DNA from: Candidatus Adlerbacteria bacterium
GTDB lineage: Bacteria; Patescibacteriota; Minisyncoccia; Phycocordibacterales; SBAW01
NCBI GenBank assembly: GCA_003135635.1
Contig: PLCJ01000002.1
Span: 109,451 to 173,450, forward strand
Direction of reading: 5' to 3'
Length of the DNA stretch: 64,000 nucleotides
Part shown: positions 12,953 through 64,000 of the stretch, one piece after another
Numbering within the stretch: the stretch's first letter is position 1
Layout: each line of letters starts with the position of its first letter
Notes under the pieces: model-generated
The model's database searches: none
Told to the model about the DNA's origin: nothing
The model's input: only the letters and a program-made list of their open reading frames with translations
Position numbers and translations under genes: made by a program

Positions 12953-13225
12953 TCACTGTGCGTTGCTGGCCACGCTCGCTTCGCACTCTTCAAGATAGCG
13001 AGCTGTGAACTCATGAAGAGAGAAGTTCGATCGAAAGCACTCAAGGAACTCCACAAGAGTCAGGCGGTGGCCGAAGTCACGGAGTATCCCCAACATTCTT
13101 ATGAACGACAGGTCAATGCAGATTTTCTCGGCAATCTGTCGGTCGAAGCGAAAATTAATGACTTCTTTGAGAAGATCTGCCCTTGACTTGGGGTGGTTGG
13201 TGCCTGCAGGATTGCTGTCTGGCAT
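12953..13225 (-). CDS. hypothetical small protein (90 aa)
   Basis: strong RBS AAGGAGG 6 nt before the ATG; flanked upstream and downstream by copies of the terminator/motif module. Confidence 0.55.
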   Translation of the reverse strand: MPDSNPAGTNHPKSRADLLKEVINFRFDRQIAEKICIDLSFIRMLGILRDFGHRLTLVEFLECFRSNFSLHEFTARYLEECEASVASNAQ

Positions 13226-13312
13226 GGGAAACCTCCTTATGGGTGCCAGTATCTGTTATCTTTATACTATATAATTTTGGTTTTGTCTATTTTTTCGTTT
13301 GCCCCACACCTT

Positions 13313-13328
13313 GGAAGATGTTAGAACC
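13313..13328 (-). repeat. copy of recurrent intergenic motif (GGTTCTAACATCTTCC)
   Basis: plus strand ggaagatgttagaacc; directly after terminator + TTTTTTATATACAATAG on the minus strand. Confidence 0.6.
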
Positions 13329-13334
13329 TATTGT

Positions 13335-24591: not shown

Positions 24592-25056
24592 TTACTGTTG
24601 TCTAGGGGGAAGTGGCATGGGCGGCAGTATGCGGATAAGTTGCGCTTCAATATACCCTTGCGTGTCGGGCTCTCCCAACACAATTACTGCCTCTCCTTGG
24701 CTGAGTGTGGTACTTGTTGCCTCACCATGAATGATCGTTGAGGTGCTAACAAGAATAGTCTCGCTACTACCGGTACGAGTCTGCAGAGTAAGCAGTGGCA
24801 ACGCGACGTTTGTTAGGGTGCCCACCGCTCCATGACCGTCTTCTATAAATTCGTGTGGGAGAGGAAACATACCAAATGGTGTGGCAAAGGATCCAGGACC
24901 GTGATTAAACGGAGGAACACGCTCAAAGCCATGCCGCTCAGCCTCAAATAGCATACCGAGATTGAAAATAAGTATGACAACAATGCAGCCACCGAGGATA
25001 CCAAGCCCCATACGCGTGCGCCGCGACTCCCAGATTTTTTTTACCTCATCAGACAT
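24592..25056 (-). CDS. hypothetical single-pass membrane protein
   Basis: 154 aa, one TM (LGILGGCIVVILIFNLGMLF) and an extracytoplasmic domain. Confidence 0.45.
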   Translation of the reverse strand: MSDEVKKIWESRRTRMGLGILGGCIVVILIFNLGMLFEAERHGFERVPPFNHGPGSFATPFGMFPLPHEFIEDGHGAVGTLTNVALPLLTLQTRTGSSETILVSTSTIIHGEATSTTLSQGEAVIVLGEPDTQGYIEAQLIRILPPMPLPPRQQ

Positions 25057-25065
25057 AGCAACGCC

Positions 25066-25482
25066 TTATGCGCCTACTGGAGTAAATGCATATCGAACAT
25101 TGCGTGGTATGCGTGAAAGTGACCACCCAAATACTCCTGCGCATACAAGTACGCCTGCTATTGCAAAGGAAGGCAATGATTCAAGAAGCAGGTAGCTGAA
25201 GGTTTGCCAAAAAGAGAAAATTACGTTGTGATCGGAAACCATAAGAGAAAGATAATCATAAAATCCCGAAGCATAAAATTCCTGAACCGCGTAGGAAAGT
25301 GCGGAAATAAGAGCAACACCAGAAAAAAGTGCCACTGTGGCGGTTATGCCTATTTGGATACGGGCAGCACGACGCCGCACAGCAGCAACGTGCTGAAGTA
25401 CGACTCCACAAAGAGCCTGAGGAGGCACAACTTCTTTTAGAAACGTGTACAGATAATCCTGCATGCCAATACATACGAACAC
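25066..25482 (-). CDS. hypothetical membrane protein (candidate anti-sigma factor)
   Basis: 138 aa, several TM segments, immediately downstream of the ECF sigma gene; the role is inferred from position only. Confidence 0.35.
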   Translation of the reverse strand: MFVCIGMQDYLYTFLKEVVPPQALCGVVLQHVAAVRRRAARIQIGITATVALFSGVALISALSYAVQEFYASGFYDYLSLMVSDHNVIFSFWQTFSYLLLESLPSFAIAGVLVCAGVFGWSLSRIPRNVRYAFTPVGA

Positions 25483-25548
25483 CAGGCTCTATTTGGTGCG
25501 CCCAGCCTCCCGATACATAGAGGGGGAAGTATGGGGCTATCCAGGCAA

Positions 25549-26115
25549 TCAAGGTGATGCATCCAGGAGTTTGCGCAAAATTATAAGGGCTCGGTAGTGT
25601 CGACTTTTAACGGTGTTCGTAGGTTGCTTGAGGATTTTGCCTATTTCTTCAAAAGTCAGTCGGTTCGTGTAATGGAGTAGCAGCACATCACGTTGAGAGG
25701 GAGGGAGAGTGGTTATTGCTTCTTGCAGATCCTTTTCGTCCTCGCCTCGTATCATCATTTCTTCTGCAAGGAGCTCAGTATCGGATACCGTCTCTTCGAG
25801 AATATTTTTCCCTTGGGCGGTTTCAAATGTCGAAAACGGAATTTGTTTTTTCTTGCGTATCTTGTCAACAGCGGTGTTGCGTGCGATACGCATAAGCCAT
25901 GTGGTAAATTTTCCTGCGCTTACCTTGTATCGATGTATATTCCGCCATACTTTCACAAATGTCTCTTGAGTGATATCTTCTGCATCATATTCGCTTCCCG
26001 TGAATCGCAGAGCAAAGGAATATACCATAGTGAGATTGCGTCGCGTGAGTTCCTCAAAAGCGTTTTCATTTCCGCGCACGTATAAGGCGATAAGCTCTTC
26101 ATTGGATTGCTCCAT
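25549..26115 (-). CDS. ECF-type RNA polymerase sigma-70 factor
   Basis: region 2 (TMVYSFALRFTGSEYDAEDITQETFVKVW) and region 4 HTH (LTFEEIGKILKQPTNTVKSRHYRAL); start placed at the internal MEQSNEEL Met; the track ORF extends to 26184. Confidence 0.8.
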   Translation of the reverse strand: MEQSNEELIALYVRGNENAFEELTRRNLTMVYSFALRFTGSEYDAEDITQETFVKVWRNIHRYKVSAGKFTTWLMRIARNTAVDKIRKKKQIPFSTFETAQGKNILEETVSDTELLAEEMMIRGEDEKDLQEAITTLPPSQRDVLLLHYTNRLTFEEIGKILKQPTNTVKSRHYRALIILRKLLDASP

Positions 26116-33475: not shown

Positions 33476-33994
33476 ATGGCCCTCATAATTGGCGGCAAAC
33501 CCAAACGCCAGCTTCTGCGGGAATTAAAAGAAGGCGGTTTCCTGGTGGCTGATGAAGCTCGAGACATTATCATTAACCATGCGTTCACGACGCTTCCTGA
33601 AACCGAACTAATCGACGACCTCGGAATTGTCATCGTGCGAGATCTGGGTAGTTTTCCTGAGAGAGAGCCAACGACAGGTCAACTATGGGCTCGCATACGT
33701 GAATCGGGATATGGTCTCTGTCCAGCGGAAACCGCTCTCCACCTGCGTCTTCAAGGAGATCAGGGACACGGCAACTACTGCTGGATGGCGATGGAGCGGG
33801 TCGCTGGTTCCAAGGGTAATCTGTACGTATTCACTCTCCGGCGTGGTAACGATGGCAAGCTTTGGCTTGATGTCGAGCGTGCCAATCCGGGTGATCCGTG
33901 GCGTATTAACAGCTGTCTCATCGTCCGTCTGCAGTCCCATGACCGAAGGCCAGCAACATGGGGTTCTTCCGATCTCATGTCAGTTCCCGTATGA
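33476..33994 (+). CDS. hypothetical protein (GC-rich gene inserted between uvrB and uvrA)
   Basis: 172 aa; strong RBS AAGGAGGGA; coding GC visibly higher than the flanks; followed by its own terminator. Confidence 0.55.
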   Translation: MALIIGGKPKRQLLRELKEGGFLVADEARDIIINHAFTTLPETELIDDLGIVIVRDLGSFPEREPTTGQLWARIRESGYGLCPAETALHLRLQGDQGHGNYCWMAMERVAGSKGNLYVFTLRRGNDGKLWLDVERANPGDPWRINSCLIVRLQSHDRRPATWGSSDLMSVPV

Positions 33995-34045: not shown

Positions 34046-34107
34046 TGTTTTTATATATACGTTTATTAATAAAATCGATGGAAGATCGAAAGATTACACT
34101 TTCCCTA

Positions 34108-34129
34108 GTGGATGATGTTAGAAACTATT
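34108..34129 (-). repeat. copy of recurrent intergenic motif (TAGTTTCTAACATCATCCAC)
   Basis: plus strand gtggatgatgttagaaactatt; on the minus strand it follows terminator + TTTTTTATATAG. Confidence 0.6.
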
Positions 34130-38441: not shown

Positions 38442-39422
38442 ATGCGAGAAGTCGTTGGCGTACTGCGCGGCGGCCCATCAAGCGAGTACGAGGTGTCCCT
38501 GAGAAGTGGCGCCACAGTGCTTGAGGCCCTTGATCGAGAAAAATACGATCCGCGCGACATTTTTATCGATCGCTTGGGCGTGTGGCATACAGCCGGCATT
38601 CCTGGTACCCCCGAGCGTGTGTTGCGGGGGGTGGATGTAGTATTTAATGCGCTTCACGGCGAATACGGAGAAGACGGAAAAGTGCAGCGTACGCTTGATG
38701 CGCTTGCTATCCCCTATACCGGGTCAGGTGCCGCTCAATCAGCTGTTGCTTTCAATAAGCAGCGCACCAAAGAAGCGCTCAAAACGTTTGGAATCAAAAT
38801 GCCCCATAGCATCCTTGTGCGACCCGAGGGGGATAGCGAAGCGCTTGCTCTTAAAATATTTCGCTCGTTTCCACATCCGGCAATCGTAAAGCCCGGCAGC
38901 GGAGGTTCTTCCGTGGGAATAACCATTGCAGATAATTTTCATGCGCTTCAACGGGGACTTGAGTATGCCGCTCGCGTATCACCCCAGGTGCTGGTCGAGG
39001 AATTTATCAAGGGGAGGGAAGCAACGGTAGGAGTAATCGATTCATTCCGCAATGAACACACGTATGCGCTCATGCCTGTTGAAATTATTCCGGCCTCGCA
39101 CCGACCGTTTTTTGATTATGAAGCAAAGTATGGCGGAGAGACGACTGAACGGGTACCCGCTCACTTTACGTCTCACGAAAAACAAGAGCTTACAAACCTC
39201 GCGCGTCAAGTGCATGAAGGATTAGAGCTTTCCCACTACTCTCGCTCAGATTTTATGGTAAGTAAGCGGGGCATTTATTTTTTGGAAGTAAATACACTGC
39301 CTGGTCTTACCAAAGAATCCCTTCTTCCGAAAGCCTTGCATGCCGTGGGAGCAAAACTTTCAGATTTTTTTGATCATGTTATTTCCCTTGCGCGTGGCAG
39401 GAGAAGAACCCAGCAAGCTTGA
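38442..39422 (+). CDS. ddl: D-alanine--D-alanine ligase
   Basis: Ddl N-terminal domain (VLRGGPSSEYEVSLRSG) and ATP-grasp fold with C-terminal EVNTLPG. Confidence 0.85.
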   Translation: MREVVGVLRGGPSSEYEVSLRSGATVLEALDREKYDPRDIFIDRLGVWHTAGIPGTPERVLRGVDVVFNALHGEYGEDGKVQRTLDALAIPYTGSGAAQSAVAFNKQRTKEALKTFGIKMPHSILVRPEGDSEALALKIFRSFPHPAIVKPGSGGSSVGITIADNFHALQRGLEYAARVSPQVLVEEFIKGREATVGVIDSFRNEHTYALMPVEIIPASHRPFFDYEAKYGGETTERVPAHFTSHEKQELTNLARQVHEGLELSHYSRSDFMVSKRGIYFLEVNTLPGLTKESLLPKALHAVGAKLSDFFDHVISLARGRRRTQQA

Positions 39423-39451: not shown

Positions 39452-39494
39452 GAAATAAAGAAGCCCCGCCGAAGCAAGACTACTTCAAGCGGGA
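39452..39494 (-). terminator. rho-independent terminator; near-identical copy at 56571 in inverted orientation
   Basis: minus strand TCCCGCTTGAAGTAGTCTTGCTTCGGCGGGGCTTCTTTATTTC: two-tier hairpin plus T-rich tail. Confidence 0.6.
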
Positions 39495-41782: not shown

Positions 41783-42403
41783 ATGAGGAGATACGCTTTC
41801 ATTGATGTTCATAATACTGCCAGCACCGCTCAGCAAATGTTGGGAATTGTTATAGATTGGGCTAAATTGTGTGATTATCTAAAAAACAAAAGGTCTTGTA
41901 CTGAAGTTTTCTTCTACACTGGGATTGATCAAGGGGACGCGGAAACTGCTAACGAATTTGAAGCACTCTCTAAAATCAGCTGCTGTATGGTTAGAAGTAA
42001 AGCCGTTTTCGCCTATAAGAATAAGGATAAAGTCGTCGCTCTTAAGTGCGTGAAGTGTGGTAACGAGAACGTCCATATTGTAAATATGGGTTATACAAAA
42101 AAATCCAATTGCGATGTGGAGTTATCTGTAGACGCAATTGAAAAATCAGGCCCAGAAGTCGAGCTAATGATATTTACTGCGGACGGTGATTTTGAATATC
42201 TTATACGCAAAGCCTTAGACAAGGGTGTAATCAAGGTTGAGGTCGTTTCTTATGCAGGTAAAGATATACAAGCTGGGATGACCATATCCAGGTTCTCTAC
42301 AAAGCTAAGAAACTTATTCACTGAAAAACCAAATAAGGTCATTTATACTTCCCTTAGGGACATAAAGGATATAATTAAGAAGACAGTGCCCATTGCTGCT
42401 TAA
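41783..42403 (+). CDS. NYN (LabA-like PIN-fold) domain protein with internal zinc ribbon
   Basis: YAFIDVHN N-terminus, IFTADGDFEYLIRKALDKG block, CVKCGNEN. Confidence 0.7.
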   Translation: MRRYAFIDVHNTASTAQQMLGIVIDWAKLCDYLKNKRSCTEVFFYTGIDQGDAETANEFEALSKISCCMVRSKAVFAYKNKDKVVALKCVKCGNENVHIVNMGYTKKSNCDVELSVDAIEKSGPEVELMIFTADGDFEYLIRKALDKGVIKVEVVSYAGKDIQAGMTISRFSTKLRNLFTEKPNKVIYTSLRDIKDIIKKTVPIAA

Positions 42404-44288: not shown

Positions 44289-44741
44289 CTACCAGCCACT
44301 GGATGAATGGAAGGGCCACGGTTTTCTTTTTTCAAGTTTCTTTTGTCTCTCTGCCTCGCAAGCCGGCACAAAGACAATTACTGCGAGAACTACGCAGACA
44401 ATAAAGGTCTCCCACCGATCAACTTTCAACCAAAAATACAATGGCCAAGATAGGAATACTCCTGCGAAGAAGAAGCCCACGCTTCCACAAAGTAGACTCT
44501 CGCTTGCGCGCGAGTTATTTGCTGTTTTTCTGGGCCAGAAATCTTTTGCACCCACGAAGCTGTAACCGCCGGCACATACAAAAGTAATTCCTCCCAACAC
44601 CAGCAATATGATAGCTAGCAACGGAAAGAACCACCCCATTCGTAGTAGCACAAGGGGAATGAGAACGAGAAATCCGATGGTCACCCAGAACGACTGAGAC
44701 TTGTAGAAAACCTCTTCTGAGGGTTTTCCCGGTTGGTCCAT
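44289..44741 (-). CDS. hypothetical polytopic membrane protein
   Basis: 150 aa, 4 predicted TM helices. Confidence 0.45.
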   Translation of the reverse strand: MDQPGKPSEEVFYKSQSFWVTIGFLVLIPLVLLRMGWFFPLLAIILLVLGGITFVCAGGYSFVGAKDFWPRKTANNSRASESLLCGSVGFFFAGVFLSWPLYFWLKVDRWETFIVCVVLAVIVFVPACEAERQKKLEKRKPWPFHSSSGW

Positions 44742-51158: not shown

Positions 51159-51231
51159 GGGCCCATAGCTCATTTGGTAGAGCGCATCCATGGCATGGAT
51201 GAGGCGAGGGGTTCGAATCCCCTTGGGTCCA
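51159..51231 (+). tRNA. tRNA-Ala (anticodon GGC)
   Basis: acceptor GGGCCCA/TGGGTCC with G3:U70; anticodon arm CATCC-ATGGCAT-GGATG; T-loop TTCGAAT. Confidence 0.85.
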
Positions 51232-51397
51232 CAAAGTATACACATTTTTGAAATATTTAATCTTGGTTTGCCCTTTATTTTCTGCGAACGTGCACGCTCG
51301 ACCATTTGTACAACTCTTTACACATTGAAAACACGTGTTATTATGTCAATAGAGTACTTGTACCAACAATTCTCTAGCCAATCGAAAGGAATAGTGG

Positions 51398-52087
51398 GTG
51401 AAAGAGAGAGCAAAAGGAAAAGCGATTTTCATCGACGGTGCATCTGCACACGTTACGAAAAGCGCCCTCGGAATAGGGACATATAATTTTCACGGTCTCT
51501 ATGATGTATTGCGGAATGAGGTCGGCACGTGCCGCAGGATTGTCGGCATTCCAATCGTAACGGTGGGCCCCGATGCGTATGAAAGGGGATATGGACTTGT
51601 AAAAGATCTGGCAGGCGCCGGATTTAATGTCGTTCCAGCTCGAAGTGATAATGGGGAGGATGACGAGTTTATCAAGACGCGCATTCGAGGCCTTGATCCT
51701 CGGGAAGTCGAGGAGATTGTCATTTTTACTTCCGACAAGGACTTCATCCCGGTTCTTAGAGAAAAGGCCAATGTGGGGGTTAGGATTTATTGGGTCTCAA
51801 CCAAGCATCATGAGCCAGGTCTCAACCGTCACTGTCTTTCCCAGGATGTCATCCAATTGTGCATGACAACACCAGGTTTCAGTTTCGTCGAGATCGCCGA
51901 GTTCAAAGGGGCAATCACTGGCAAACGACCATGGTCAACCGCCACCGCCACTTCCTATAAAAAGGAGGACGTCACGATTGTTACGATCCGGCTTCAAAAT
52001 ATGTATAAAGAAGAACATGGGCGACTTATTCGCAGTATCCAGTCGCTTACTTCTGAGTTCGCCGGACTAACTTTCATCGTCGAGTAG
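51398..52087 (+). CDS. NYN (LabA-like) domain protein with extra C-terminal domain
   Basis: GTG start; AIFIDGASAHV and IVIFTSDKDFIPVLREKANVGVRIYWVS blocks. Confidence 0.65.
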   Translation: MKERAKGKAIFIDGASAHVTKSALGIGTYNFHGLYDVLRNEVGTCRRIVGIPIVTVGPDAYERGYGLVKDLAGAGFNVVPARSDNGEDDEFIKTRIRGLDPREVEEIVIFTSDKDFIPVLREKANVGVRIYWVSTKHHEPGLNRHCLSQDVIQLCMTTPGFSFVEIAEFKGAITGKRPWSTATATSYKKEDVTIVTIRLQNMYKEEHGRLIRSIQSLTSEFAGLTFIVE

Positions 52088-52127
52088 TAGTTCAACGGGG
52101 CCAAAGAGTTCCCAGTACTCTTCTTGA

Positions 52128-52163
52128 GGGCAGCATCACAATGTGACCTGCCCTTTTTCTTTT
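52128..52163 (+). terminator. rho-independent terminator
   Basis: GGGCAG / CTGCCC stem followed by TTTTTCTTTTTAATATA. Confidence 0.55.
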
Positions 52164-52190
52164 TAATATAATGAATCACCTGGTAAGGTA

Positions 52191-52216
52191 AAACGGCTCT
52201 AACATCGTCCGAGATG
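52191..52216 (+). repeat. copy of recurrent intergenic motif (AAAACGGCTCTAACATCGTCCGAG)
   Basis: preceded by terminator + TAATATAATGAATCACC; followed by TTGACT at 52225. Confidence 0.6.
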
Positions 52217-52274
52217 CGGTTACTTTGACTCATTTTTATATTTGAAGTAAGTTTGAAACGGAAAGGAGTCTCAT

Positions 52275-52703
52275 ATGGCCCAGTTGACCCTGGGAATGTA
52301 CAAGAAATTTCACGCTAAAAGGGGCTTGTTCGGTCTCCGCTGCGATCAAGTTCGCACTAGAGGAAGGATGGCTTCAGATGGAAGCGGCTGGTACAACAAG
52401 GAAGGTGAACGGCTCGGCGGTGGCAGCCTCTCGAAGTCTGACCTCCGTAAGATCGCACGCGGATTGGAGGAAGGTGAATTATTCATCATCCTTGATGCGT
52501 ACGAAGCCATGAAAGGAGGCGAACAACCTGGCGTCGGCTACGTCGCAAACAATGCTCGTTTGGTCATCGGCCGGAACCAGTGGTATTTCATCATCCCTCA
52601 CTTTTCCCGAGAGAAGAAAACACGGAAGGTGAAAGGATTGCAGTGCCAGGTTCTGACCCAGGATGTTTTAAAGACGCTTATGCTCAGTGGAGCCACCGTC
52701 TGA
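52275..52703 (+). CDS. hypothetical protein (142 aa), island cassette gene
   Basis: RBS GGAAAGGAG; own terminator downstream; no recognisable domain. Confidence 0.55.
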   Translation: MAQLTLGMYKKFHAKRGLFGLRCDQVRTRGRMASDGSGWYNKEGERLGGGSLSKSDLRKIARGLEEGELFIILDAYEAMKGGEQPGVGYVANNARLVIGRNQWYFIIPHFSREKKTRKVKGLQCQVLTQDVLKTLMLSGATV

Positions 52704-52757
52704 CCTTCCCGGGCGAAATCAAACCAACAGTGCAATGCTTCCCAGCACTTCTGTGAT

Positions 52758-52797
52758 GAGCCCCTATGCACGGATGCATAGGGGCTCTCAGTTTTAT
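52758..52797 (+). terminator. rho-independent terminator
   Basis: perfect 13-bp stem gagcccctatgca / tgcataggggctc, 4-nt loop, then TCAGTTTTATAT. Confidence 0.65.
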
Positions 52798-52838
52798 ATG
52801 TACACAATGGTGAATCACGTAGTGGGGGGTAGAGGGTC

Positions 52839-52865
52839 AAAACGGTTCTAGTGTCATCCACAACC
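52839..52865 (+). repeat. copy of recurrent intergenic motif (AAAACGGTTCTAGTGTCATCCACAACC)
   Basis: preceded by terminator + TTTTATATGTACACAATGGTGAATCACG. Confidence 0.55.
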
Positions 52866-52895
52866 TTTAGCACGTAAATTTGCTAAAATTACAGT

Positions 52896-53069
52896 ATGAA
52901 ATCGCTCAGATATATTGCGCTCATAGGAAATGCAATGTATATCCTCTGGATCTTGTATAATGGTATTGATGAAGGATCTCGTAGTGTTGGCAGTGTTGAG
53001 ATAGTCTCACTTATCGGTCTATTTTTTCTGTTGTTTCTAAATATTGTCCTCTTGTGGAGGCAAAAATAG
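52896..53069 (+). CDS. hypothetical small membrane protein (57 aa), possibly leaderless
   Basis: two hydrophobic helices; TAAAAT box ends 6 nt before the ATG; below the ORF-track cutoff; the stop codon sits inside the next motif copy. Confidence 0.35.
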   Translation: MKSLRYIALIGNAMYILWILYNGIDEGSRSVGSVEIVSLIGLFFLLFLNIVLLWRQK

Positions 53070-53088
53070 TTCTGACGTCGTCCACAGG
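53063..53088 (+). repeat. copy of recurrent intergenic motif (AAAAATAGTTCTGACGTCGTCCACAGG)
   Basis: immediately upstream of the -35 element TTGACA of the DoxX promoter. Confidence 0.55.
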
Positions 53089-53097
53089 CTGCAGCTA

Positions 53098-53125
53098 TTG
53101 ACAGTGGCGTATACTTAACTATATA
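53098..53125 (+). promoter_or_regulatory. sigma70-like promoter of the DoxX gene
   Basis: TTGACA (53098-53103), 16-nt spacer, TATATA (53120-53125), ~18 nt to the ATG. Confidence 0.5.
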
Positions 53126-53143
53126 TCCATCCAATAATTAAAT

Positions 53144-53557
53144 ATGAAAAGTATTCATACTTTTGTGCATCGATTTAATAATCCAGATTTTGGCATTTTG
53201 CTTATTCGCCTTGCATTTGGCCTTGTGTTTATTAATGCTGGGTGGATGAAAATAACTTCGATGGACACTACTATCCAATCCTTTGGCACACTCGGCTTTT
53301 CTCCATTTCTTGCGTATTTCGTCGCATGGGCAGAACTTATCGGCGGTGTTGCTTTTATAGTCGGTATCTTTAGTCGCTACGCCGGGATTATACTTACCAT
53401 TATTATGGTGGTTGCGGTTAAAATTCTTTTTGTAAAAGGATTTTCTTTGGCGCATGGTGGTTATGAATTTCCTCTGGTGGCTATGCTTGGTTCGCTCGCG
53501 ATTGTGACATTTGGCTCTGGTGCGTATTCTCTTGCACGAATGCTCAAACGCCGATAA
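53144..53557 (+). CDS. DoxX-family membrane protein
   Basis: GILLIRLAFGLVFINAGWMKI DoxX N-terminal block; 4 TM; 137 aa. Confidence 0.7.
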   Translation: MKSIHTFVHRFNNPDFGILLIRLAFGLVFINAGWMKITSMDTTIQSFGTLGFSPFLAYFVAWAELIGGVAFIVGIFSRYAGIILTIIMVVAVKILFVKGFSLAHGGYEFPLVAMLGSLAIVTFGSGAYSLARMLKRR

Positions 53558-53600
53558 AAATTCCTCGACCTGTTTGTAGAAGCAGTAGAGCAATCTACTA

Positions 53601-53626
53601 ATATAGTTCTAACGTTATACGCGACC
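53601..53626 (+). repeat. copy of recurrent intergenic motif (ATATAGTTCTAACGTTATACGCGACC)
   Basis: followed by CTGCAGCATTGATA, as the copy at 53063 is by CTGCAGCTATTGACA. Confidence 0.55.
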
Positions 53627-53748
53627 TGCAGCATTGATAAAATTAAGATTGGTTTCATCATTAAAGCTTTCTATACCTGTTAAAGAGTAGTTAGTTGGAC
53701 AAACTCTCATTTTTCATGTAAAAGTAGATTCAGAAGGAGGGGTTCCCA

Positions 53749-54051
53749 GTGACAAAATCTCTTTGCCACGTGCTTCATATGGACGATACCAATTGCTTCT
53801 TGATTGTGGCATGGATGCCGATGCATGAGTGGAAATCTGTCCCCATCTCAGGAGCAAGTGAGCTTCAAAAACGCTACGACTACAGTCTTGACCTTTTTCC
53901 TGATGAAATATTCGGCTTGTTCATGTGGTATAGAGTGGCAAAAAATCCACCACTTCCAATCCGAAAGCTTAAAAGGGCTTTTGCTCTAGATCTGCAGCGT
54001 TACCTTGAACTTGACACTCGGCCTGAGATTGTTCCTACTCGATCTCAGTAG
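53749..54051 (+). CDS. hypothetical protein (100 aa), island cassette gene
   Basis: GTG start 10 nt after GAAGGAGGGG; own terminator. Confidence 0.5.
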   Translation: MTKSLCHVLHMDDTNCFLIVAWMPMHEWKSVPISGASELQKRYDYSLDLFPDEIFGLFMWYRVAKNPPLPIRKLKRAFALDLQRYLELDTRPEIVPTRSQ

Positions 54052-54084
54052 ACCTCGCAATACCATGCGAGGTCTTTCTTTTCT
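54051..54084 (+). terminator. rho-independent terminator
   Basis: gacctcgca / tgcgaggtc stem, 6-nt loop, then TTTCTTTTCT. Confidence 0.6.
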
Positions 54085-54092
54085 AGTACTCC

Positions 54093-54122
54093 TTGACAGA
54101 TAGCATATGTATCAGCTAAATA
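54093..54122 (+). promoter_or_regulatory. sigma70-like promoter
   Basis: TTGACA (54093-54098), 18-nt spacer, TAAATA. Confidence 0.4.
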
Positions 54123-54239
54123 TGTCTAGTTCTTTGAGAAGGGGAGGTTGCCCCAACCTTAGGTCACTCAATTTCTAGGCGACTTTAGGCTACGACGACA
54201 CCTTCGCCCGACTAACGCACTAAGTATAAGGAGTAACCA

Positions 54240-54749
54240 GTGATAACAATTTCAGAAGCCAAACAGCGAGGGCCGCTCAGAGGCCACTTGCGTACAGTGC
54301 TTCCGATGGCCGAGCGATTTTCGGTCGGCAATGAAATACGTGTTGGAGCTGTCATCGGAAAACACCCGGTCACGCACGTTGGTCGCAACTTCCTGCAATG
54401 GTTCGGTTTCCTAATGGAAAACGTTCCGTCCGCCGAGATTAAAAGCTGGGGACTCGCCCCCACATCCACGGTTTCTCTCTCGAATCAATCGATCATAGAG
54501 TCGTTGGGAGGTGAGAAAACGGCAGTAACGTCCGTCGTCCGGATGGTCCAGGTGATAAAGCTCGGGGACTTAGGTCCCGGTCATTTTCACGGCTGGGACA
54601 ATCTGCACTACATCAGGCGGTTCGGAACAAACGAGATCTGCGTTGTTGCTTGGTCCCTCGCCGACAGAGGGCTGCGCTTCTACGCGTTTTCCATTTCGGA
54701 TTCCGATGGGGATGTGTGGCGCCCGGGCCACCGCGTCTTTAGCGGCTGA
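54240..54749 (+). CDS. hypothetical protein (169 aa), island cassette gene
   Basis: GTG start after TAAGGAG; GC-rich coding sequence; no recognisable domain. Confidence 0.5.
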   Translation: MITISEAKQRGPLRGHLRTVLPMAERFSVGNEIRVGAVIGKHPVTHVGRNFLQWFGFLMENVPSAEIKSWGLAPTSTVSLSNQSIIESLGGEKTAVTSVVRMVQVIKLGDLGPGHFHGWDNLHYIRRFGTNEICVVAWSLADRGLRFYAFSISDSDGDVWRPGHRVFSG

Positions 54750-54943
54750 TCTTTTACAACGCACAAATGCAAAGGGTATCGGAATAATCTGGTGCCCTTT
54801 TTTGTTTTATCTCTAAACAATGGTGATCCACTAAGGTAGTGTAGACGCACAATACTATCTCTATTGCTTTTGGTAACTTTCCCAAGCATAATTCCAAAAG
54901 ACCTGTCCTTATACTAAATACTAAAGATAGAAAGAGAGGCCAT

Positions 54944-55207
54944 ATGCGTACCATGCATGGAGCAAAGGCTAGGGTAGCGGCTCAACAGCGTGCCGCAAAG
55001 CACCTCTCCAGAGAATCTGTTGTCTTTCTTGGACACAGGAAAAACGATCAAGGAGAGACGGTTGGAGATTTCGAGTTTCAAGGTACTGAAACACGACTGG
55101 TCTCGCTCAATGAGGCTGGGTGGAGGCGGCGATTGCAATTCCTTAAGAAATCTGGATACCCTCATGACATAACCAAGCAGGTTCTTAAGGAATGGCCAGA
55201 TGAATGA
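54944..55207 (+). CDS. hypothetical protein (87 aa)
   Basis: ATG preceded by AAAGAGAGG; basic protein. Confidence 0.45.
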   Translation: MRTMHGAKARVAAQQRAAKHLSRESVVFLGHRKNDQGETVGDFEFQGTETRLVSLNEAGWRRRLQFLKKSGYPHDITKQVLKEWPDE

Positions 55208-55312
55208 CATTCCCTGGCGTTCTTAAGTTTCGCGAAGGCATCGGATTACTCCGGTGCCTCTTGCTTTTACATATAGTTCCCAACCAAAAAACACCTTAAT
55301 ATAAGGTTGTTT

Positions 55313-55338
55313 TATAGATTAACATATGTTAATCTATA
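55313..55338. promoter_or_regulatory. perfect 26-bp palindrome, probable autoregulatory operator of the HTH-Doc operon
   Basis: TATAGATTAACATATGTTAATCTATA ending 3 nt before the HTH gene ATG. Confidence 0.5.
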
Positions 55339-55341
55339 AAT

Positions 55342-55617
55342 ATGGCTATAAATAAGGATATTAATTACCAAACCTATATTTCAGCCCCAGAGTTGGCTAA
55401 GCTTATGGGCGTCAGTAGAATAACCATTTTTAAGAAAATAAAGGCAGGGAAAATACACGCACAGAAAGTTGGTAGAAACTACATCATACCCGCCGAGGAA
55501 ATAGCCATTGCAGTAGGAGAACTTGTCTCTCCTAAAAAGAAAGAAGAGATTGAGAAGGTAGTAAAAAGGGCGGTCAAAGAATACCGAGAGGCTTTTCAGT
55601 TGCTTGGGCGAGAATAA
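55342..55617 (+). CDS. excisionase-family HTH DNA-binding protein (putative antitoxin)
   Basis: HTH_17-like block ISAPELAKLMGVSRITIFKKIKAGKIHAQKVGRNYIIP. Confidence 0.7.
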   Translation: MAINKDINYQTYISAPELAKLMGVSRITIFKKIKAGKIHAQKVGRNYIIPAEEIAIAVGELVSPKKKEEIEKVVKRAVKEYREAFQLLGRE

Positions 55618-55620
55618 ATT

Positions 55621-56088
55621 ATGGCAAGGAGACCGATAAAAAAATTGTCGGTTCTCGAAGTGGAATATGTAGCTCATCGGCTTGCGCAAGAGTTGATGGA
55701 ATATGGCGAGCCTATCCCTCCTTTCGATACTCGTTCTCCCCATCGCCTTGAAAGTTGTCTGGAAACACCATTTCAGAAATACCTCAATAAAAGTCTTTAC
55801 GACGGTATCATTCGCAAAGCAGCGATGCTTTTTTATTTGATGATAAAAAATCATCCGTTCCAAAATGGAAATAAACGAGTAGCAATTTTAACCACTCTCG
55901 TATTTCTTAGTCAAAATGGACGTTGGATTCAAGTAGACAATCTCCCTTTGTATGAATTTGCAAAAGAAGTAGCGAAGAGCGACTCATCCAAAAGTAAAGA
56001 AGAGGTAGAAAAGATAGTTGCTTTTATGACCACCAATATGATTCTTCTTCCTTTGGAAGATGAAATTATAGAGGATGAAACCATCTAG
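55621..56088 (+). CDS. Fic/Doc family toxin
   Basis: Fic motif HPFQNGNKRVAIL (HxFx[DEN]GNKR). Confidence 0.8.
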   Translation: MARRPIKKLSVLEVEYVAHRLAQELMEYGEPIPPFDTRSPHRLESCLETPFQKYLNKSLYDGIIRKAAMLFYLMIKNHPFQNGNKRVAILTTLVFLSQNGRWIQVDNLPLYEFAKEVAKSDSSKSKEEVEKIVAFMTTNMILLPLEDEIIEDETI

Positions 56089-56188
56089 GGTAATTAAGTA
56101 TATAGTTCCCAATTGTTGTTACTTGACAGATACTTTGTACATGTTATCGTGTTAACAACTGATCTTTGTTTCTCAGAAAGGAACCCTA

Positions 56189-56570: not shown

Positions 56571-56612
56571 TCCCGCTTGAAGTAGTCTTGCTTCGGCGGG
56601 ACTTCTTTATTT
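56571..56612 (+). terminator. rho-independent terminator; near-identical copy of 39452-39494
   Basis: TCCCGCTTGAAGTAGTCTTGCTTCGGCGGGACTTCTTTATTTCC, 41/42 identical to the reverse complement of 39452-39494. Confidence 0.6.
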
Positions 56613-56642
56613 CCATACACCATCATAGTGAGCTGCGGGGTA

Positions 56643-62279: not shown

Positions 62280-63223
62280 TGAATCAGCCACTTATCTCAT
62301 ACATCATTCCGACTTTGAATGCCGAGCAGTATCTGAAGCGCTGTCTCGACAGTATTTTTATGCAGGATTACCCTCGCGACAGGTATGAGGTTATTATTGC
62401 TGATGGAGGATCTAAGGACAGGACTATCGAGATTTTGAAATCGTATCCAGTTACCTATGTCCACAATGAAAAACATGACGCGGAAAGCGGAAAATACGTT
62501 GCGATACAAAAAGCGAAAGGGGATATCTACGTCCTACTCGATTCCGACAACATTATTGCGTCGAAAGATTGGCTTACCTCACTTATTCAACCTCTAAAAG
62601 AAAACCCGGATATTGTCGGAGTCGAGTCGAATTATTTAATTGCCAACGATTTCACTTCTCTTAATACTTACACAAACCTTCTTGTAATAGTCGATCCGTT
62701 AGCACGTATGCTCGCGGCGCGACCCTCCAAAATTGACAAGAAGGGCACTTACATCCTTAAAACGTTCGCTCAAAACTCTACTCCAATATCAGGCGCAAAC
62801 GGTTTTTTGTGGCGCAAAAGTGTTGTTGAAGAATATTTACGGACGAATGGTAAAGAGTTTCCGGAGGCAAAAGTGCTTGCTGACGTTGCTATTAGCGGTA
62901 AAGTAGTCTACGCCAACGTGCCAGGCAAAGGGGTTTATCATTATTACTGTGTTTCGCTGAACGATTACTTAAAGAAGCGAAGAAAAGTCGCCAAGAACAT
63001 TCTCGCAAGAAAATCCAGACGTGAGGACATTTGGATTGAAAAAGGCGGGAAGCTGCGTTTTTATTCTAGCGCTCTTTACCTCACTTCTTTCGTCGGGCCT
63101 CTTTTTGAAGCGACTTATAACTTTCTTAAAACAGGAAGAAAAGAATGGTTTTGGCATCCGATTGTCTGTTTTCTGACAGTGTGGGTGTACAGCTTATTTT
63201 TCATGAGCAGTCATTATGAATAA
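62279..63223 (+). CDS. GT2 family glycosyltransferase
   Basis: ISYIIPTLNAEQYLKRCLDSIFMQDY N-terminus, DGGSKD, LDSDN. Confidence 0.75.
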   Translation: MNQPLISYIIPTLNAEQYLKRCLDSIFMQDYPRDRYEVIIADGGSKDRTIEILKSYPVTYVHNEKHDAESGKYVAIQKAKGDIYVLLDSDNIIASKDWLTSLIQPLKENPDIVGVESNYLIANDFTSLNTYTNLLVIVDPLARMLAARPSKIDKKGTYILKTFAQNSTPISGANGFLWRKSVVEEYLRTNGKEFPEAKVLADVAISGKVVYANVPGKGVYHYYCVSLNDYLKKRRKVAKNILARKSRREDIWIEKGGKLRFYSSALYLTSFVGPLFEATYNFLKTGRKEWFWHPIVCFLTVWVYSLFFMSSHYE

Positions 63224-64000
63224 AATTTCGGTGATAATAGTTAACTATAATGGTAAGAAATGGCTACAAAAATGCCTCGATTCTTTGCTTACGCAACAGT
63301 ATAAGAATTTTGAAGTTATAGTTGTCGATAATAATTCAAGCGACGATAGTATCCAATATATTGAGAAGAATTACCCCACAGTAATTGTTATCAAAAGTGA
63401 TAAAAACCTAGGATTTGCCGGTGGAAATAATCTAGGTATAGAAAAAGCTAAAGGAGAGTATATATTACTACTGAACAATGACACATGGGTGGAAAATAGT
63501 TTTTTGGAAAAGCTTTATACATTTTATATAAATCACGATTTTGATGTAGTAGGACCTTACCAAAAAGACTATCATGATGAAAGTGAATTTAAACAATACT
63601 TAATCACAATAGATTTGTTTGGTCATCCAATATATATATCAAAAGGAATCAAAAGAACTGGCTTTTATCTGTCTGGAGTTTGCGTACTTTTTTCTAAGAA
63701 ACTTTACGCAGAGACTCTTGGTCTCGATAGTAATTTCTTTATGTATTTTGAAGAAATTGACTGGTTTTGGCGATTGAATTTATTGAAGAAAACGTTTTCC
63801 TATGTTGACAACTTGTTTGTTTACCATGCCGGTGCTGGATCAACCGGAAGTGGCATTAAATATCAGAGTTTTTTATGGAGAAACCAAAATACTTTACAAA
63901 TGTTATTAAAAAATTACAGCCGGTATAATTTATTTTGGGTATTACCAATTTATTTTCTTCAGAATATTGTTGAAATAGCATTTTTTCTCTTAATATTTAA
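63216..64000 (+). CDS. GT2 family glycosyltransferase (5' partial, runs off the window)
   Basis: ATG at 63216 overlapping the upstream stop; ISVIIVNYNGKKWLQKCLDSLLTQQY, VVDNNSSDDS; no stop before the window end. Confidence 0.6.
   Translation, partial: MNKISVIIVNYNGKKWLQKCLDSLLTQQYKNFEVIVVDNNSSDDSIQYIEKNYPTVIVIKSDKNLGFAGGNNLGIEKAKGEYILLLNNDTWVENSFLEKLYTFYINHDFDVVGPYQKDYHDESEFKQYLITIDLFGHPIYISKGIKRTGFYLSGVCVLFSKKLYAETLGLDSNFFMYFEEIDWFWRLNLLKKTFSYVDNLFVYHAGAGSTGSGIKYQSFLWRNQNTLQMLLKNYSRYNLFWVLPIYFLQNIVEIAFFLLIF

Follow-up and report, generated by a model that had tools for sequence, protein, structure and literature searches.

The question raised by this locus, found in Candidatus Adlerbacteria, is what kind of region is formed by six small genes that follow one another on the plus strand after a tRNA-Ala(GGC) gene. 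They lie in a stretch of 64,000 nucleotides (hereafter the window), and the first-pass annotation had taken them, at 52.1-55.2 kb, for a set of independent accessory cassettes of the kind seen in accessory or defence islands. All six ORFs were confirmed with their coordinates; they do not overlap and encode proteins of 142, 57, 137 (DoxX), 100, 169 and 87 aa. The brackets proposed for the array are also real, with the tRNA and a NYN gene (a marginal match) upstream and HTH_17 and Fic/Doc genes downstream. The reading that we favour, and to which we would give about an even chance, is that the array forms the end nearest the tRNA of a variable segment in which foreign-derived, moron-like units stand together with host-like genes and share a cis-regulatory element.

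The tRNA-Ala(GGC) gene (51159-51232, plus strand; found by ARAGORN, Rfam 62.4 bits) is the conserved left anchor of this segment. Comparison with 80 related Adlerbacteria/Paceibacteria loci showed that the gene order of the window at 34.5-51.1 kb matches that of relatives and that synteny is kept as far as atpC and the tRNA and lost beyond. The pairing of atpC with tRNA-Ala was seen in about 28 related loci, and the closest match of AtpG (75%) is in Adlerbacteria metagenome-assembled genomes. In the relatives, 0.1-6.8 kb of unrelated cargo, including an rve transposase, an AAA_15 ATPase with a HEPN protein and a GIY-YIG protein, separates atpC-tRNA-Ala from a conserved downstream block (membrane protein, flavodoxin-like protein, YchF and LeuRS), and none of the window genes of 51.3-64 kb was found downstream of the tRNA locus there. 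Here the same block restarts only 19.3 kb past the tRNA, at window-equivalent position 70577, and the array therefore opens a lineage-specific variable segment. The expectation of an accessory region that varies at this tRNA was thus borne out by the synteny comparison that had been suggested, as the array block is not shared and other cargo takes its place. The segment would span position 51233 to about 70576 (window-equivalent) and would occupy a conserved plasticity hotspot of Candidatus Adlerbacteria, bounded by atpC-tRNA-Ala(GGC) on one side and by the YchF-LeuRS block on the other. Most of these 19 kb are taken up by a glycan-biosynthesis cluster. As in tRNA-adjacent genomic islands and plasticity zones, the segment begins directly 3' of a tRNA gene, is variable among relatives, mosaic and rich in orphans, and contains a toxin-antitoxin pair and a surface-glycan cluster. 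It differs from them in that an integrase, mobility genes and a direct repeat of the tRNA 3' end are all missing, the spot being set by the conserved flanks and not by att sites.

The spacers between the array genes are long and uniform (187, 192, 191, 188 and 194 nt), those inside the neighbouring operons being -8 to +33 nt, so that the layout is indeed unlike that of the packed operons nearby. Two of the six genes (100 and 169 aa), and not three as first counted, have GTG starts; the third GTG is the start codon of the NYN gene. Strong terminator hairpins stand behind that gene and behind p142, p100, p169 and p87. The first of these (52126-52165, plus strand; stem GAGGGCAG/CUGCCCUU, then UUUUUCUUUUU) is a terminator-like hairpin with a T-run whose loop is too long for the terminator scan and which was found by folding. 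The scan placed the others, all on the plus strand, at 52758-52787 after p142 (fold z = -4.6), 54050-54075 after p100 (z = -5.4), 54771-54800 after p169 (z = -4.9) and 55236-55259 after p87 (z = -3.8), while neither p57 nor DoxX is followed by one (z about 0). Three of the four terminators listed earlier, at 52128, 52758 and 54051, are accordingly present; the one upstream of 53144 is absent and those at 54771 and 55236 had been missed. The description of the genes as monocistronic is only partly true, because p57, DoxX and p100 share no intervening terminator. As to the claim that most genes have a promoter of their own, single good hexamer pairs do occur, although the scan as a whole gave 13 promoter-like hits against 8.8 ± 3.0, i.e. 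no enrichment.

The NYN gene (51398-52087, plus strand, 229 aa, GTG start) matched the Pfam NYN model at 4.9e-5, which is at the cut-off. It is the sole member of its 90% cluster, is without a relative in the JGI metagenome scan and is barely related to a second NYN gene at 41837-42403. Within the array, where all genes are on the plus strand, p142 (52275-52703, AGGAG 6 nt before the ATG) and p100 (53749-54051, GTG start, AGGAGG 8 nt upstream) are orphans that matched only themselves among 5.8 billion proteins, with no detectable homologue. The hydrophobic, two-TM-like p57 (52896-53069) and the basic p87 (54944-55207, GAGG 4 nt before the ATG) are singletons at 90% clustering, and p87 found no relative in JGI metagenome contigs, plasmids or 50,697 phage records (tblastn), a narrower search than that made for p142 and p100. 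Because p57 has no SD and a TAAAAT ends 7 nt before its ATG, its mRNA may be leaderless. The 137-aa DoxX-family membrane protein (53144-53557; Pfam DoxX 2.5e-18) is also encoded without an SD. It had been considered the only recognisable product of the array; p169 (54240-54749, GTG start, AGGAG 6 nt upstream) is indeed without a Pfam domain, but it belongs to a conserved, unannotated family. The structure prediction proposed as a check gave a low-confidence model for p142 (pLDDT 40, single-sequence AF2) and a confident one for p169, the predicted structure of which weakly resembles C-type-lectin/FGE folds. Judging by its family and this model, p169 is a real protein. No model of PADLOC, PHROGs, Pfam or NCBIfam was matched by p142, p57, p100, p169 or p87.

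Two classes of genes can be told apart within the array. An RBS had been claimed for each gene, and an SD is present in four of them (AGGAG, AGGAGG, AGGAG and GAGG) and missing from p57 and DoxX; among the other genes 38 of 44 lack one (Fisher p = 0.002). The SD-led genes p142, p100, p169 and p87 also have higher G+C and atypical codon usage, with a codon LLR of 0.06-0.14 (0.14 for p142, 0.07 for p100 and 0.06 for p169) as against a core mean of 0.22 ± 0.10 and a host-like 0.35 for DoxX, and the G+C of neighbouring segments changes from 0.52 to 0.37-0.42, 0.45 and 0.55. By these three features, SD sites, codon usage and G+C, the four genes look foreign, and no donor was found. The array would then be a mosaic of foreign-looking, moron-like units (p142, p100, p169 and p87), each with a 5' leader bearing the strong SD that core genes almost never have and with an intrinsic terminator no more than about 55 nt past its stop codon, and of a host-like class made up of the SD-less membrane genes p57 and DoxX.

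A motif of about 24 nt (consensus AAAyrGTTCTAACrTCrTCCAC) recurs at these genes. The window holds six copies, four of them inside the array within 1.4 kb, a clustering with a p of about 2e-4. The motif is genome-specific, with zero copies in 1.18 Mb of the relatives' loci and single matches at chance level only in IMG/VR; it is not palindromic and has no conserved RNA structure. The copies reported before four gene starts, at 52191, 52840, 53064 and 53601, are all present on the plus strand. Copy 1 (AAACGGCTCTAACATCGTCCGAGA, 52191-52214) stands 14 nt ahead of TTGACT-N17-TAAGTT (52225-52253), copy 2 (AAACGGTTCTAGTGTCATCCACAA, 52840-52863) is preceded by a AATGGTGAATCAC box at 52806-52818, copy 3 (AAATAGTTCTGACGTCGTCCACAG, 53064-53087) overlaps the stop codon of p57 and is 14 nt ahead of TTGACA-N16-TATATA (53098-53125), and copy 4 (ATATAGTTCTAACGTTATACGCGA, 53601-53624) is 13 nt ahead of TTGATA-N16-CATCAT (53634-53661). 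Before p87, repeat search and alignment revealed a degenerate upstream module (54819-54867, plus strand), a AATGGTGATCCAC box followed by CACAATACTATCTCTATTGC, after which comes a TTGCTT-N17-CATAAT pair (54864-54892). Diverged copies stand before four of the array genes at the least, and probably before a fifth. Outside the array, on the minus strand, copy 5 (13309-13332) heads a unit at 12953-13332 with the same architecture, i.e. motif, TAGACA-N17-TATAAA, AGGAGG, the 90-aa orphan p90 (12953-13225) and a terminator, and copy 6 (34106-34129) lies 60 nt downstream of tRNA-Leu(taa) with no clear gene after it.

On our reading the element would act in cis as a regulatory site at the DNA level, perhaps as an operator, as an activator site or within a promoter module that was duplicated, and would place otherwise independent units under common control. 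In small regulons with a shared operator or activator, too, such an element stands upstream of promoter-like hexamers before unrelated genes, here at two loci. The spacing to the -35 hexamer is however uneven in our case, as the gap measures 13-14 nt in three cases but closes to about 0 nt at p57 and widens to about 23 nt at p90, and any regulator is hypothetical. Moreover the copies form pairs with common flanks (copies 3 and 4 have more than 33 nt in common, including CTGCAGC and the -35 hexamer), and this could reflect a history of module duplication and not selection for binding. Phage morons offer another likeness, as p142, p169, p87 and p90 look like stand-alone genes of odd composition with promoter-like sequence and an intrinsic terminator; the array differs from these in lying outside any prophage, in having several units in tandem and in its common upstream motif.

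An unlikely alternative is that part of the array is non-coding or decaying DNA, with p142, p100 and p87 as ORFs that arose by chance or through degradation, and with genes confined to DoxX, p169 and perhaps p57. The three ORFs have no homologue in the searches run and their codon LLR (0.07-0.14) falls within the range of out-of-frame decoys (maximum 0.15), for which reasons we call them putative coding genes. The low-confidence model of p142 points the same way, the gene callers differ on starts and overlooked p169, and we calculate that chance alone should yield a few ORFs of 87-100 codons in 3 kb. Against this, all three start 4-8 nt past an SD, a rare arrangement elsewhere in this genome, and are followed, 20-55 nt past their ends, by a strong terminator; they have GC1 > GC2, their frame is the best or tied-best of six, and the ORFs tile one strand of the array without overlap. 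The conserved and foldable p169 has the same traits, its low LLR included.

It is very unlikely that the motif copies are att-like junctions between which promoter-bearing segments of 649, 224 and 537 bp were inserted one after the other, as in an integron. Four co-oriented direct copies do delimit single-gene segments that differ in G+C and SD use, the locus is a variable hotspot, and the copy beside tRNA-Leu with no following gene resembles an empty site. Toxin-antitoxin pairs are common in chromosomal integrons, and the HTH-Doc pair adjoins the array. Like integron arrays and CALINs, the array consists of co-oriented single small genes, mostly of unknown function, with a short repeat per junction. 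However, no tyrosine or serine recombinase or transposase occurs in the 73 kb examined, no tRNA-derived direct repeat was found at the locus, and attC-like R''/R' pairs number 0 where 1.06 are expected. There is neither IntI nor an attC with its R''/R' cores and imperfect hairpin; the hairpins at the junctions, with their perfect GC stems and T-runs, are terminators, and the repeat is an unstructured, non-palindromic direct repeat 5' of genes that have promoters, SD sites and terminators of their own. The absence of homologues in our searches gives no sign that any of these genes has moved, and their order is identical in all four assemblies of this population. The idea of mobile cassettes found no support here.

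An anti-phage defence island at the tRNA hotspot, with the NYN protein (a PIN-like nuclease), the small proteins and HTH-Doc making up one or more systems, is equally improbable. The last module is an operon at 55272-56112 (plus strand) with an excisionase-type HTH gene (55342-55617; HTH_17 8.3e-7, TIGR01764 4.5e-9) and a Doc gene (55621-56088; Fic 1.8e-11, DOC_P1 4.7e-18). Two TATAGTTCCCAA boxes (55272 and 56101) flank the operon, and a perfect 30-nt palindrome (55311-55340) stands before its genes. The Doc/Fic-fold toxin gene 4 nt 3' of a gene for a small DNA-binding protein, and the palindrome at the promoter, recall type II toxin-antitoxins of the Phd/Doc type; the putative antitoxin differs in being excisionase/MerR-like HTH_17 and not Phd/YefM. 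PADLOC relates Doc to its candidate families PDC-S23/S05/S04 and, weakly, the HTH protein to mad1, the relative L022 has an AAA_15/AAA_21 ATPase and a HEPN protein in the same hotspot, and one p169 homologue adjoins MORC-like, AlbA_2/Schlafen and DUF3800 genes. The other p169 homologues stand in mixed contexts, either ordinary chromosomal or with ArdC/ParB-type genes as on conjugative elements, NYN genes occur elsewhere in the window too, and it is glycan biosynthesis that fills most of the segment. With the five uncharacterised proteins blank in PADLOC, PHROGs, NCBIfam and Pfam, these searches found no known defence system in the segment apart from HTH-Doc, and the defence proposal was not supported.

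No better placed is a prophage or integrated-element remnant with the small genes as surviving morons: autonomous promoter-gene-terminator units of composition unlike their neighbours, an HTH of the excisionase family and a classically phage-borne Doc-type toxin-antitoxin (PHROG 577) would fit it, but structural, replication, integrase and lysis genes are all absent (PHROG matches being HTH, Doc and DoxX only), as is an att repeat, p87 and p169 are unmatched in 50,697 phage records (tblastn) and the p169 model is unmatched in BFVD.

Nothing, then, marks these genes out as a defence system or as mobile cassettes. In the favoured reading, that of a variable segment mixing moron-like and host-like genes, its putative products would be two small membrane proteins and four small soluble proteins, which probably serve accessory functions. 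As the glycan cluster adjoins, these functions may possibly concern the envelope or the interaction with a host.

Between 52.1 and 55.2 kb the window carries six consecutive, non-overlapping plus-strand ORFs, and their outline, with a tRNA-Ala and a NYN gene on one side and an HTH/Doc pair on the other, is as the first-pass annotation described it. The genes, named here by the length of their products in amino acids, are p142 (52275-52703), p57 (52896-53069), DoxX (53144-53557), p100 (53749-54051), p169 (54240-54749) and p87 (54944-55207). Three GTG starts had been counted, but only p100 and p169 use GTG, the remaining four beginning with ATG. Upstream, tRNA-Ala(ggc) (51159-51232) is followed by NYN229, a 229-aa gene with a GTG start and a marginal NYN match (4.9e-5) that lies at the Pfam cut-off. 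A second, clearer NYN-domain gene (41837-42403, 188 aa) is located in a tRNA-rich stretch 9 kb upstream, and its likeness to NYN229 is marginal (one 23-residue match, E = 0.002). Downstream of the array an excisionase-type HTH gene (55342-55617) is followed after 4 nt by a Doc/Fic toxin gene (55621-56088). With 65.5 bits to DOC_P1 (cut-off 38.65) and 29.6 bits to HTH_17 (cut-off 27) the two constitute a putative Doc/Fic type II toxin–antitoxin pair. A perfect 30-nt palindrome (55311-55340, TTTATAGATTAACAT/ATGTTAATCTATAAA) directly adjoins the HTH antitoxin's start codon and is probably the operator of this pair. Its half-site TATAGATTAACAT is weakly similar to the recurrent motif discussed below (TATAG·TTAACAT versus TATAGTTCTAACGT).

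The contrast with the packed operons of the window holds, as the array spacers measure 187-194 nt against -8 to +33 nt within the flanking atp and glycan operons. The five spacers (52088-54943) are of nearly equal length (187, 192, 191, 188 and 194 nt) and can be aligned in parts only. A strong ribosome-binding site and a transcript of its own had been proposed for each gene, and a promoter of its own for most, and these proposals stand in part. Shine-Dalgarno (SD) sequences precede p142, p100, p169 and p87 (AGGAG, AGGAGG, AGGAG and GAGG) and are missing from p57 and DoxX. Strong hairpin-plus-T-run terminators were found after the NYN gene, p142, p100, p169 and p87; there is none after p57 or DoxX, where the 3' sequences fold no better than shuffled controls. 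The units delimited by terminators are thus p142, p57–DoxX–p100, p169 and p87. A generic promoter scan gave no enrichment (13 versus 8.8 ± 3.0), while good hexamer pairs can be read at 52225, 53098, 53634 and 54093. On this reading every array unit has promoter-like hexamers of its own, and most have a putative terminator.

The presence of SD sequences sets part of the array apart from the host core. Among the 44 other gene calls between 22000 and 63300, 38 have no SD-like sequence and only two have one of at least 5 nt; these encode 172 aa (at 33476) and 150 aa (at 44289, minus strand), and both are orphan-like and without Pfam match. The sites at p142, p100, p169 and p87 are enriched relative to these calls (Fisher p = 0.002), and the same four genes are richer in G+C (0.45-0.55) and atypical in their choice of codons. 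On the other hand p57, DoxX, HTH and Doc are SD-less and rich in AT (G+C 0.37-0.42); codon usage is host-like in DoxX, HTH and Doc but not in p57 (0.10). A -10-like box ends a few nucleotides before the ATG of p57 and of some core genes, with modest enrichment (6/20 versus 13% by chance), which suggests that these may be transcribed as leaderless mRNAs. The contrast in SD, G+C and codon usage indicates that the array is a mosaic. The SD-led orphans look acquired, an origin that we infer, no donor having been found. The strong-SD genes are all small, orphan-like and Pfam-less, comprising p172 (33476-33994), p150 (44289-44741, minus strand), p90 (12953-13225, minus strand) and the array genes p142, p100, p169 and p87. 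As these few genes are all orphan-like, a strong SD may mark acquired genes in this Candidatus Adlerbacteria genome. For bacteria of the candidate phyla radiation (CPR), literature searches on leaderless mRNAs and on the use of SD sequences gave nothing relevant.

It can be asked whether several of the orphan ORFs are genes at all. Their codon log-likelihoods (0.07-0.14) are under the core mean of 0.22 ± 0.10 and overlap those of out-of-frame decoys, and p87 and p100 are too short to be significant by length alone. However, each orphan has an SD motif 4-8 nt ahead of its start, a strong terminator 20-55 nt past its end, GC1 higher than GC2 and a frame that is the best or tied-best among the six, and together these ORFs tile one strand without overlapping. 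Moreover p169 has the same properties and the lowest codon score (0.06), yet it is certainly a protein. We consider it unlikely that several of the orphans are spurious. Since p169 was not called in the Logan/ENA annotation although it is real, the silence of a gene caller is no evidence against the other array ORFs.

DoxX is a clear member of PF07681 (Pfam 2.5e-18; 66.9 bits, cut-off 23.6). It had been stated that no other product has a recognisable domain, and indeed p142, p57, p100, p169 and p87 gave no Pfam, PHROG, PADLOC, NCBIfam or PDB sequence match; p169 nevertheless belongs to a conserved family that is not annotated. Among 5.8 billion clustered proteins p142 and p100 matched only themselves, while p87, p57, NYN229 and p120 (the 120-aa gene after Doc) are singletons at 90% identity clustering. 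No relative of p87 or NYN229 was found in JGI metagenome contigs, nor of p87 in phage or plasmid records. No paralogy was found among the small proteins, nor does p169 show any to p172, the SD-led gene product at 33476. An exhaustive HMMER search recovered 37 cluster representatives of the p169 family at E<=1e-3, mostly of 160-210 aa, some with signal-peptide-like N-termini and a few of them long, with the domain repeated 5-7 times. Structure prediction, proposed earlier as a check, gave for p169 an AlphaFold2 model with pLDDT 93 and pTM 0.88 when the family alignment was used, whereas the single-sequence model of p142 was unusable. Foldseek found no match to the p169 model in PDB or BFVD. p169 is a member of a new protein family, for which the model predicts a fold with confidence. 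The neighbourhoods of its homologues are heterogeneous and include DUF3306 genes, a small-gene block by ArdC/ParB/helicase genes, and MORC/Schlafen/DUF3800 genes. The model bears at most a weak likeness to the C-type lectin/FGE-sulfatase-like fold, and a diversity-generating retroelement (DGR) reading of this tentative lectin-like fold was rejected, as there is no template/variable repeat pair and no reverse-transcriptase match in the genes called between 21 and 73 kb.

A recurrent element had been reported ahead of four gene starts, and plus-strand copies of about 24 nt were verified at 52191, 52840, 53064 and 53601, upstream of p142, p57, DoxX and p100. A position-matrix scan found exactly six sites in the 64 kb, the other two being on the minus strand at 13332 and 34129, and no site between 64 and 73 kb; as the matrix was derived from the same six copies this count is blind to sites that have diverged further. 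In 1.18 Mb of relatives' loci the core pattern does not occur, and one-mismatch matches there number 3 versus 7 in the window. A phage-derived origin of the motif was dismissed since IMG/VR returned 20 single matches only, which is chance level. The copy at 13332 heads a unit organised like those of the array, consisting of the terminator of the upstream gene, the motif, TAGACA-N17-TATAAA, AGGAGG, the 90-aa orphan p90 and a terminator. The copy at 34129 is placed 60 nt after tRNA-Leu without a clear gene behind it.

In the spacers before p142 and p57 the motif is part of a larger module formed by TTCCCAGyAC…, a terminator hairpin of variable sequence, a T-run with TATAT, a AATGGTGAATCAC box and the motif itself. 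The spacer before p90 contains the same module minus the AATGGTGAATCAC box, and that before p87 a degenerate copy (54819-54867). The copies before DoxX and p100 have more than 33 nt in common, including the -35 hexamer, and a related box, TATAGTTCCCAA, is found ahead of HTH–Doc and of p120. In three units the motif stops 13-14 nt short of a good -35 hexamer; at p57 the distance is about 0 nt and at p90 about 23 nt. A 43-nt terminator-like hairpin also occurs twice, inverted and with one mismatch (56571-56613 and 39452-39494), once behind p120, where the array region ends, and once after the gene ending at 39422, and represents a second family of repeated intergenic elements.

Several functions for the motif were discarded. 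No Rfam match above noise between 51 and 57 kb and 0 pairs from RNAalifold speak against a riboswitch or other cis-regulatory RNA in the long leaders. Reading TCTAAC…CGTCC as an ECF-sigma/sigma-E promoter fails because the 3-nt spacing of its two elements is wrong and no conserved partner hexamer could be seen by eye 16-17 nt away. The window does contain an ECF-type sigma factor gene (Sigma70_r2/r4_2, 24592-26115, minus strand), followed by two small Pfam-less genes that may encode an anti-sigma factor; this sigma factor was rejected as the reader of the motif on spacing alone. Finally, TATAGT was considered as a -10 box, with transcription beginning in the motif, but three copies have AACGGY or AATAGG at that place and a consistent -35 is lacking. 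We conclude that the motif is an element at the DNA level, linked to the 5' boundaries of these units; it is most probably either a site bound by a regulator or a fragment of a promoter module that was propagated.

The proposal of a variable accessory region at a tRNA was supported by the synteny comparison. The window is 100% identical to Logan SRR7151668, to a 340-kb contig in ENA ERZ19973380 and to a short JGI contig, which represent one population, and the public copies show no strain variation. Relatives were compared through an AtpG scan with one genome per species, which yielded 80 loci, nearly all from Candidatus Adlerbacteria or Paceibacteria, the best AtpG match having 75% identity. 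Synteny with these loci extends over the window genes from about 34.5 kb up to atpC, and tRNA-Ala(GGC) follows atpC in about 28 of the 80. In no relative were the genes from 51.3 kb to the window end found downstream. Instead, a block common to the relatives starts 115 bp to 6.8 kb after atpC; its products are a membrane protein, a flavodoxin-like NAD(P)H dehydrogenase, YchF, a second membrane protein and LeuRS. Here this block restarts at 70577 in window coordinates extended past 64 kb, according to the 340-kb contig; a UPF0150 (HicB-like) gene is inserted in it immediately ahead of YchF.

Since the block restarts only at that position, the array is the proximal end of a segment specific to this lineage, 19.3 kb long and starting at 51233 directly downstream of tRNA-Ala(ggc), at a conserved plasticity hotspot where relatives carry 0.1-6.8 kb of unrelated cargo. 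That cargo comprises an rve transposase (locus L016), an AAA_15/AAA_21 ATPase with a HEPN membrane protein (L022), a GIY-YIG protein (L030), a hybrid histidine kinase (L010), a NUDIX protein (L024) and giant surface proteins of 1155-1241 aa (L017 and L024), besides glycosyl-hydrolase-like proteins and many ORFs without Pfam match across L002-L081. Beyond the array the segment encodes HTH–Doc, p120 (a membrane protein), a DedA/VTT protein and a glycan-biosynthesis cluster. This cluster makes up the distal part (63000-64000, and 64-70.5 kb in extended coordinates), where its G+C drops to 0.31-0.34, and is followed by a 1004-aa CBM_4_9 protein and three proteins without Pfam match. No integrase, recombinase or transposase (Phage_integrase, Recombinase, Resolvase, rve) was found among the gene products from position 1 to 73.2 kb in extended coordinates. 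A 24-nt probe of the tRNA 3' end, allowing up to 3 mismatches, matches in the window the two tRNA-Ala genes only, and fragments of at least 16 nt, searched in 52.3-73.2 kb with up to 2 mismatches, gave none. Thus, although the segment is tRNA-adjacent and variable between conserved flanks, an integrase-mediated tRNA-linked island was rejected for want of a recombinase and of a tRNA 3' repeat in these 73 kb.

A prophage remnant with surviving morons has in its favour only the moron-like promoter–gene–terminator architecture of p142, p169, p87 and p90 and the excisionase-type HTH; no phage context was found around the units, which resemble phage morons in this architecture but do not lie inside a prophage. 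An integron-like reading of the cassettes is attractive because the direct repeats delimit segments that each hold one gene and differ in composition. The genes are co-oriented, as in integrons and CALINs. The reading is not supported, since no IntI or other recombinase is encoded in 73 kb, the attC R''/R' pattern (RYYYAAC ... GTTRRRY) gave 0 pairs versus 1.06 expected in 51.2-56.8 kb, and the junction hairpins are perfect terminator stems and not attC-type. Moreover the array units would not be promoterless like cassettes, bearing promoter-like hexamers and mostly terminators, and there is no sign of any array cassette elsewhere. The literature on integrons in CPR bacteria offered nothing relevant. 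The ~24-nt repeats might instead be junctions of an undescribed cassette-accretion mechanism of Patescibacteria, integron-like in its outcome of tandem single-gene units at one locus, with promoter- and terminator-bearing cassettes, a recombinase encoded elsewhere and the tRNA-Leu copy as an unoccupied site, but we regard this as very improbable. The suggested defence island is not supported either, for in PADLOC-DB v2 only Doc (PDC-S23 and others) and HTH (mad1, 1.6e-5) have matches, NYN229, p57, DoxX, p100, p169 and p87 having none and p142 one at chance level (Cas12b, E=0.056), so that beyond HTH–Doc the idea would draw on context by analogy.

The initial observation is largely real. The locus is a further case of a known type, carrying one unexplained cis-element, and no new kind of system is indicated; should the motif be only a duplicated promoter fragment, it would be an ordinary accessory region. 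Patescibacteria have tiny genomes in which a large share of the genes has no known function, and the acquisition and control of their accessory genes are poorly understood. The mapped hotspot, from atpC–tRNA-Ala to YchF–LeuRS, with different cargo in each relative examined, is a testable lead. Of interest are also the p169 family, the contrast in SD and codon usage with the host core, and the genome-specific motif on stand-alone orphan units. A strong SD in a nearly SD-less genome is a simple signature that could flag recent acquisitions in such genomes, and the upstream motif may define a small regulon.
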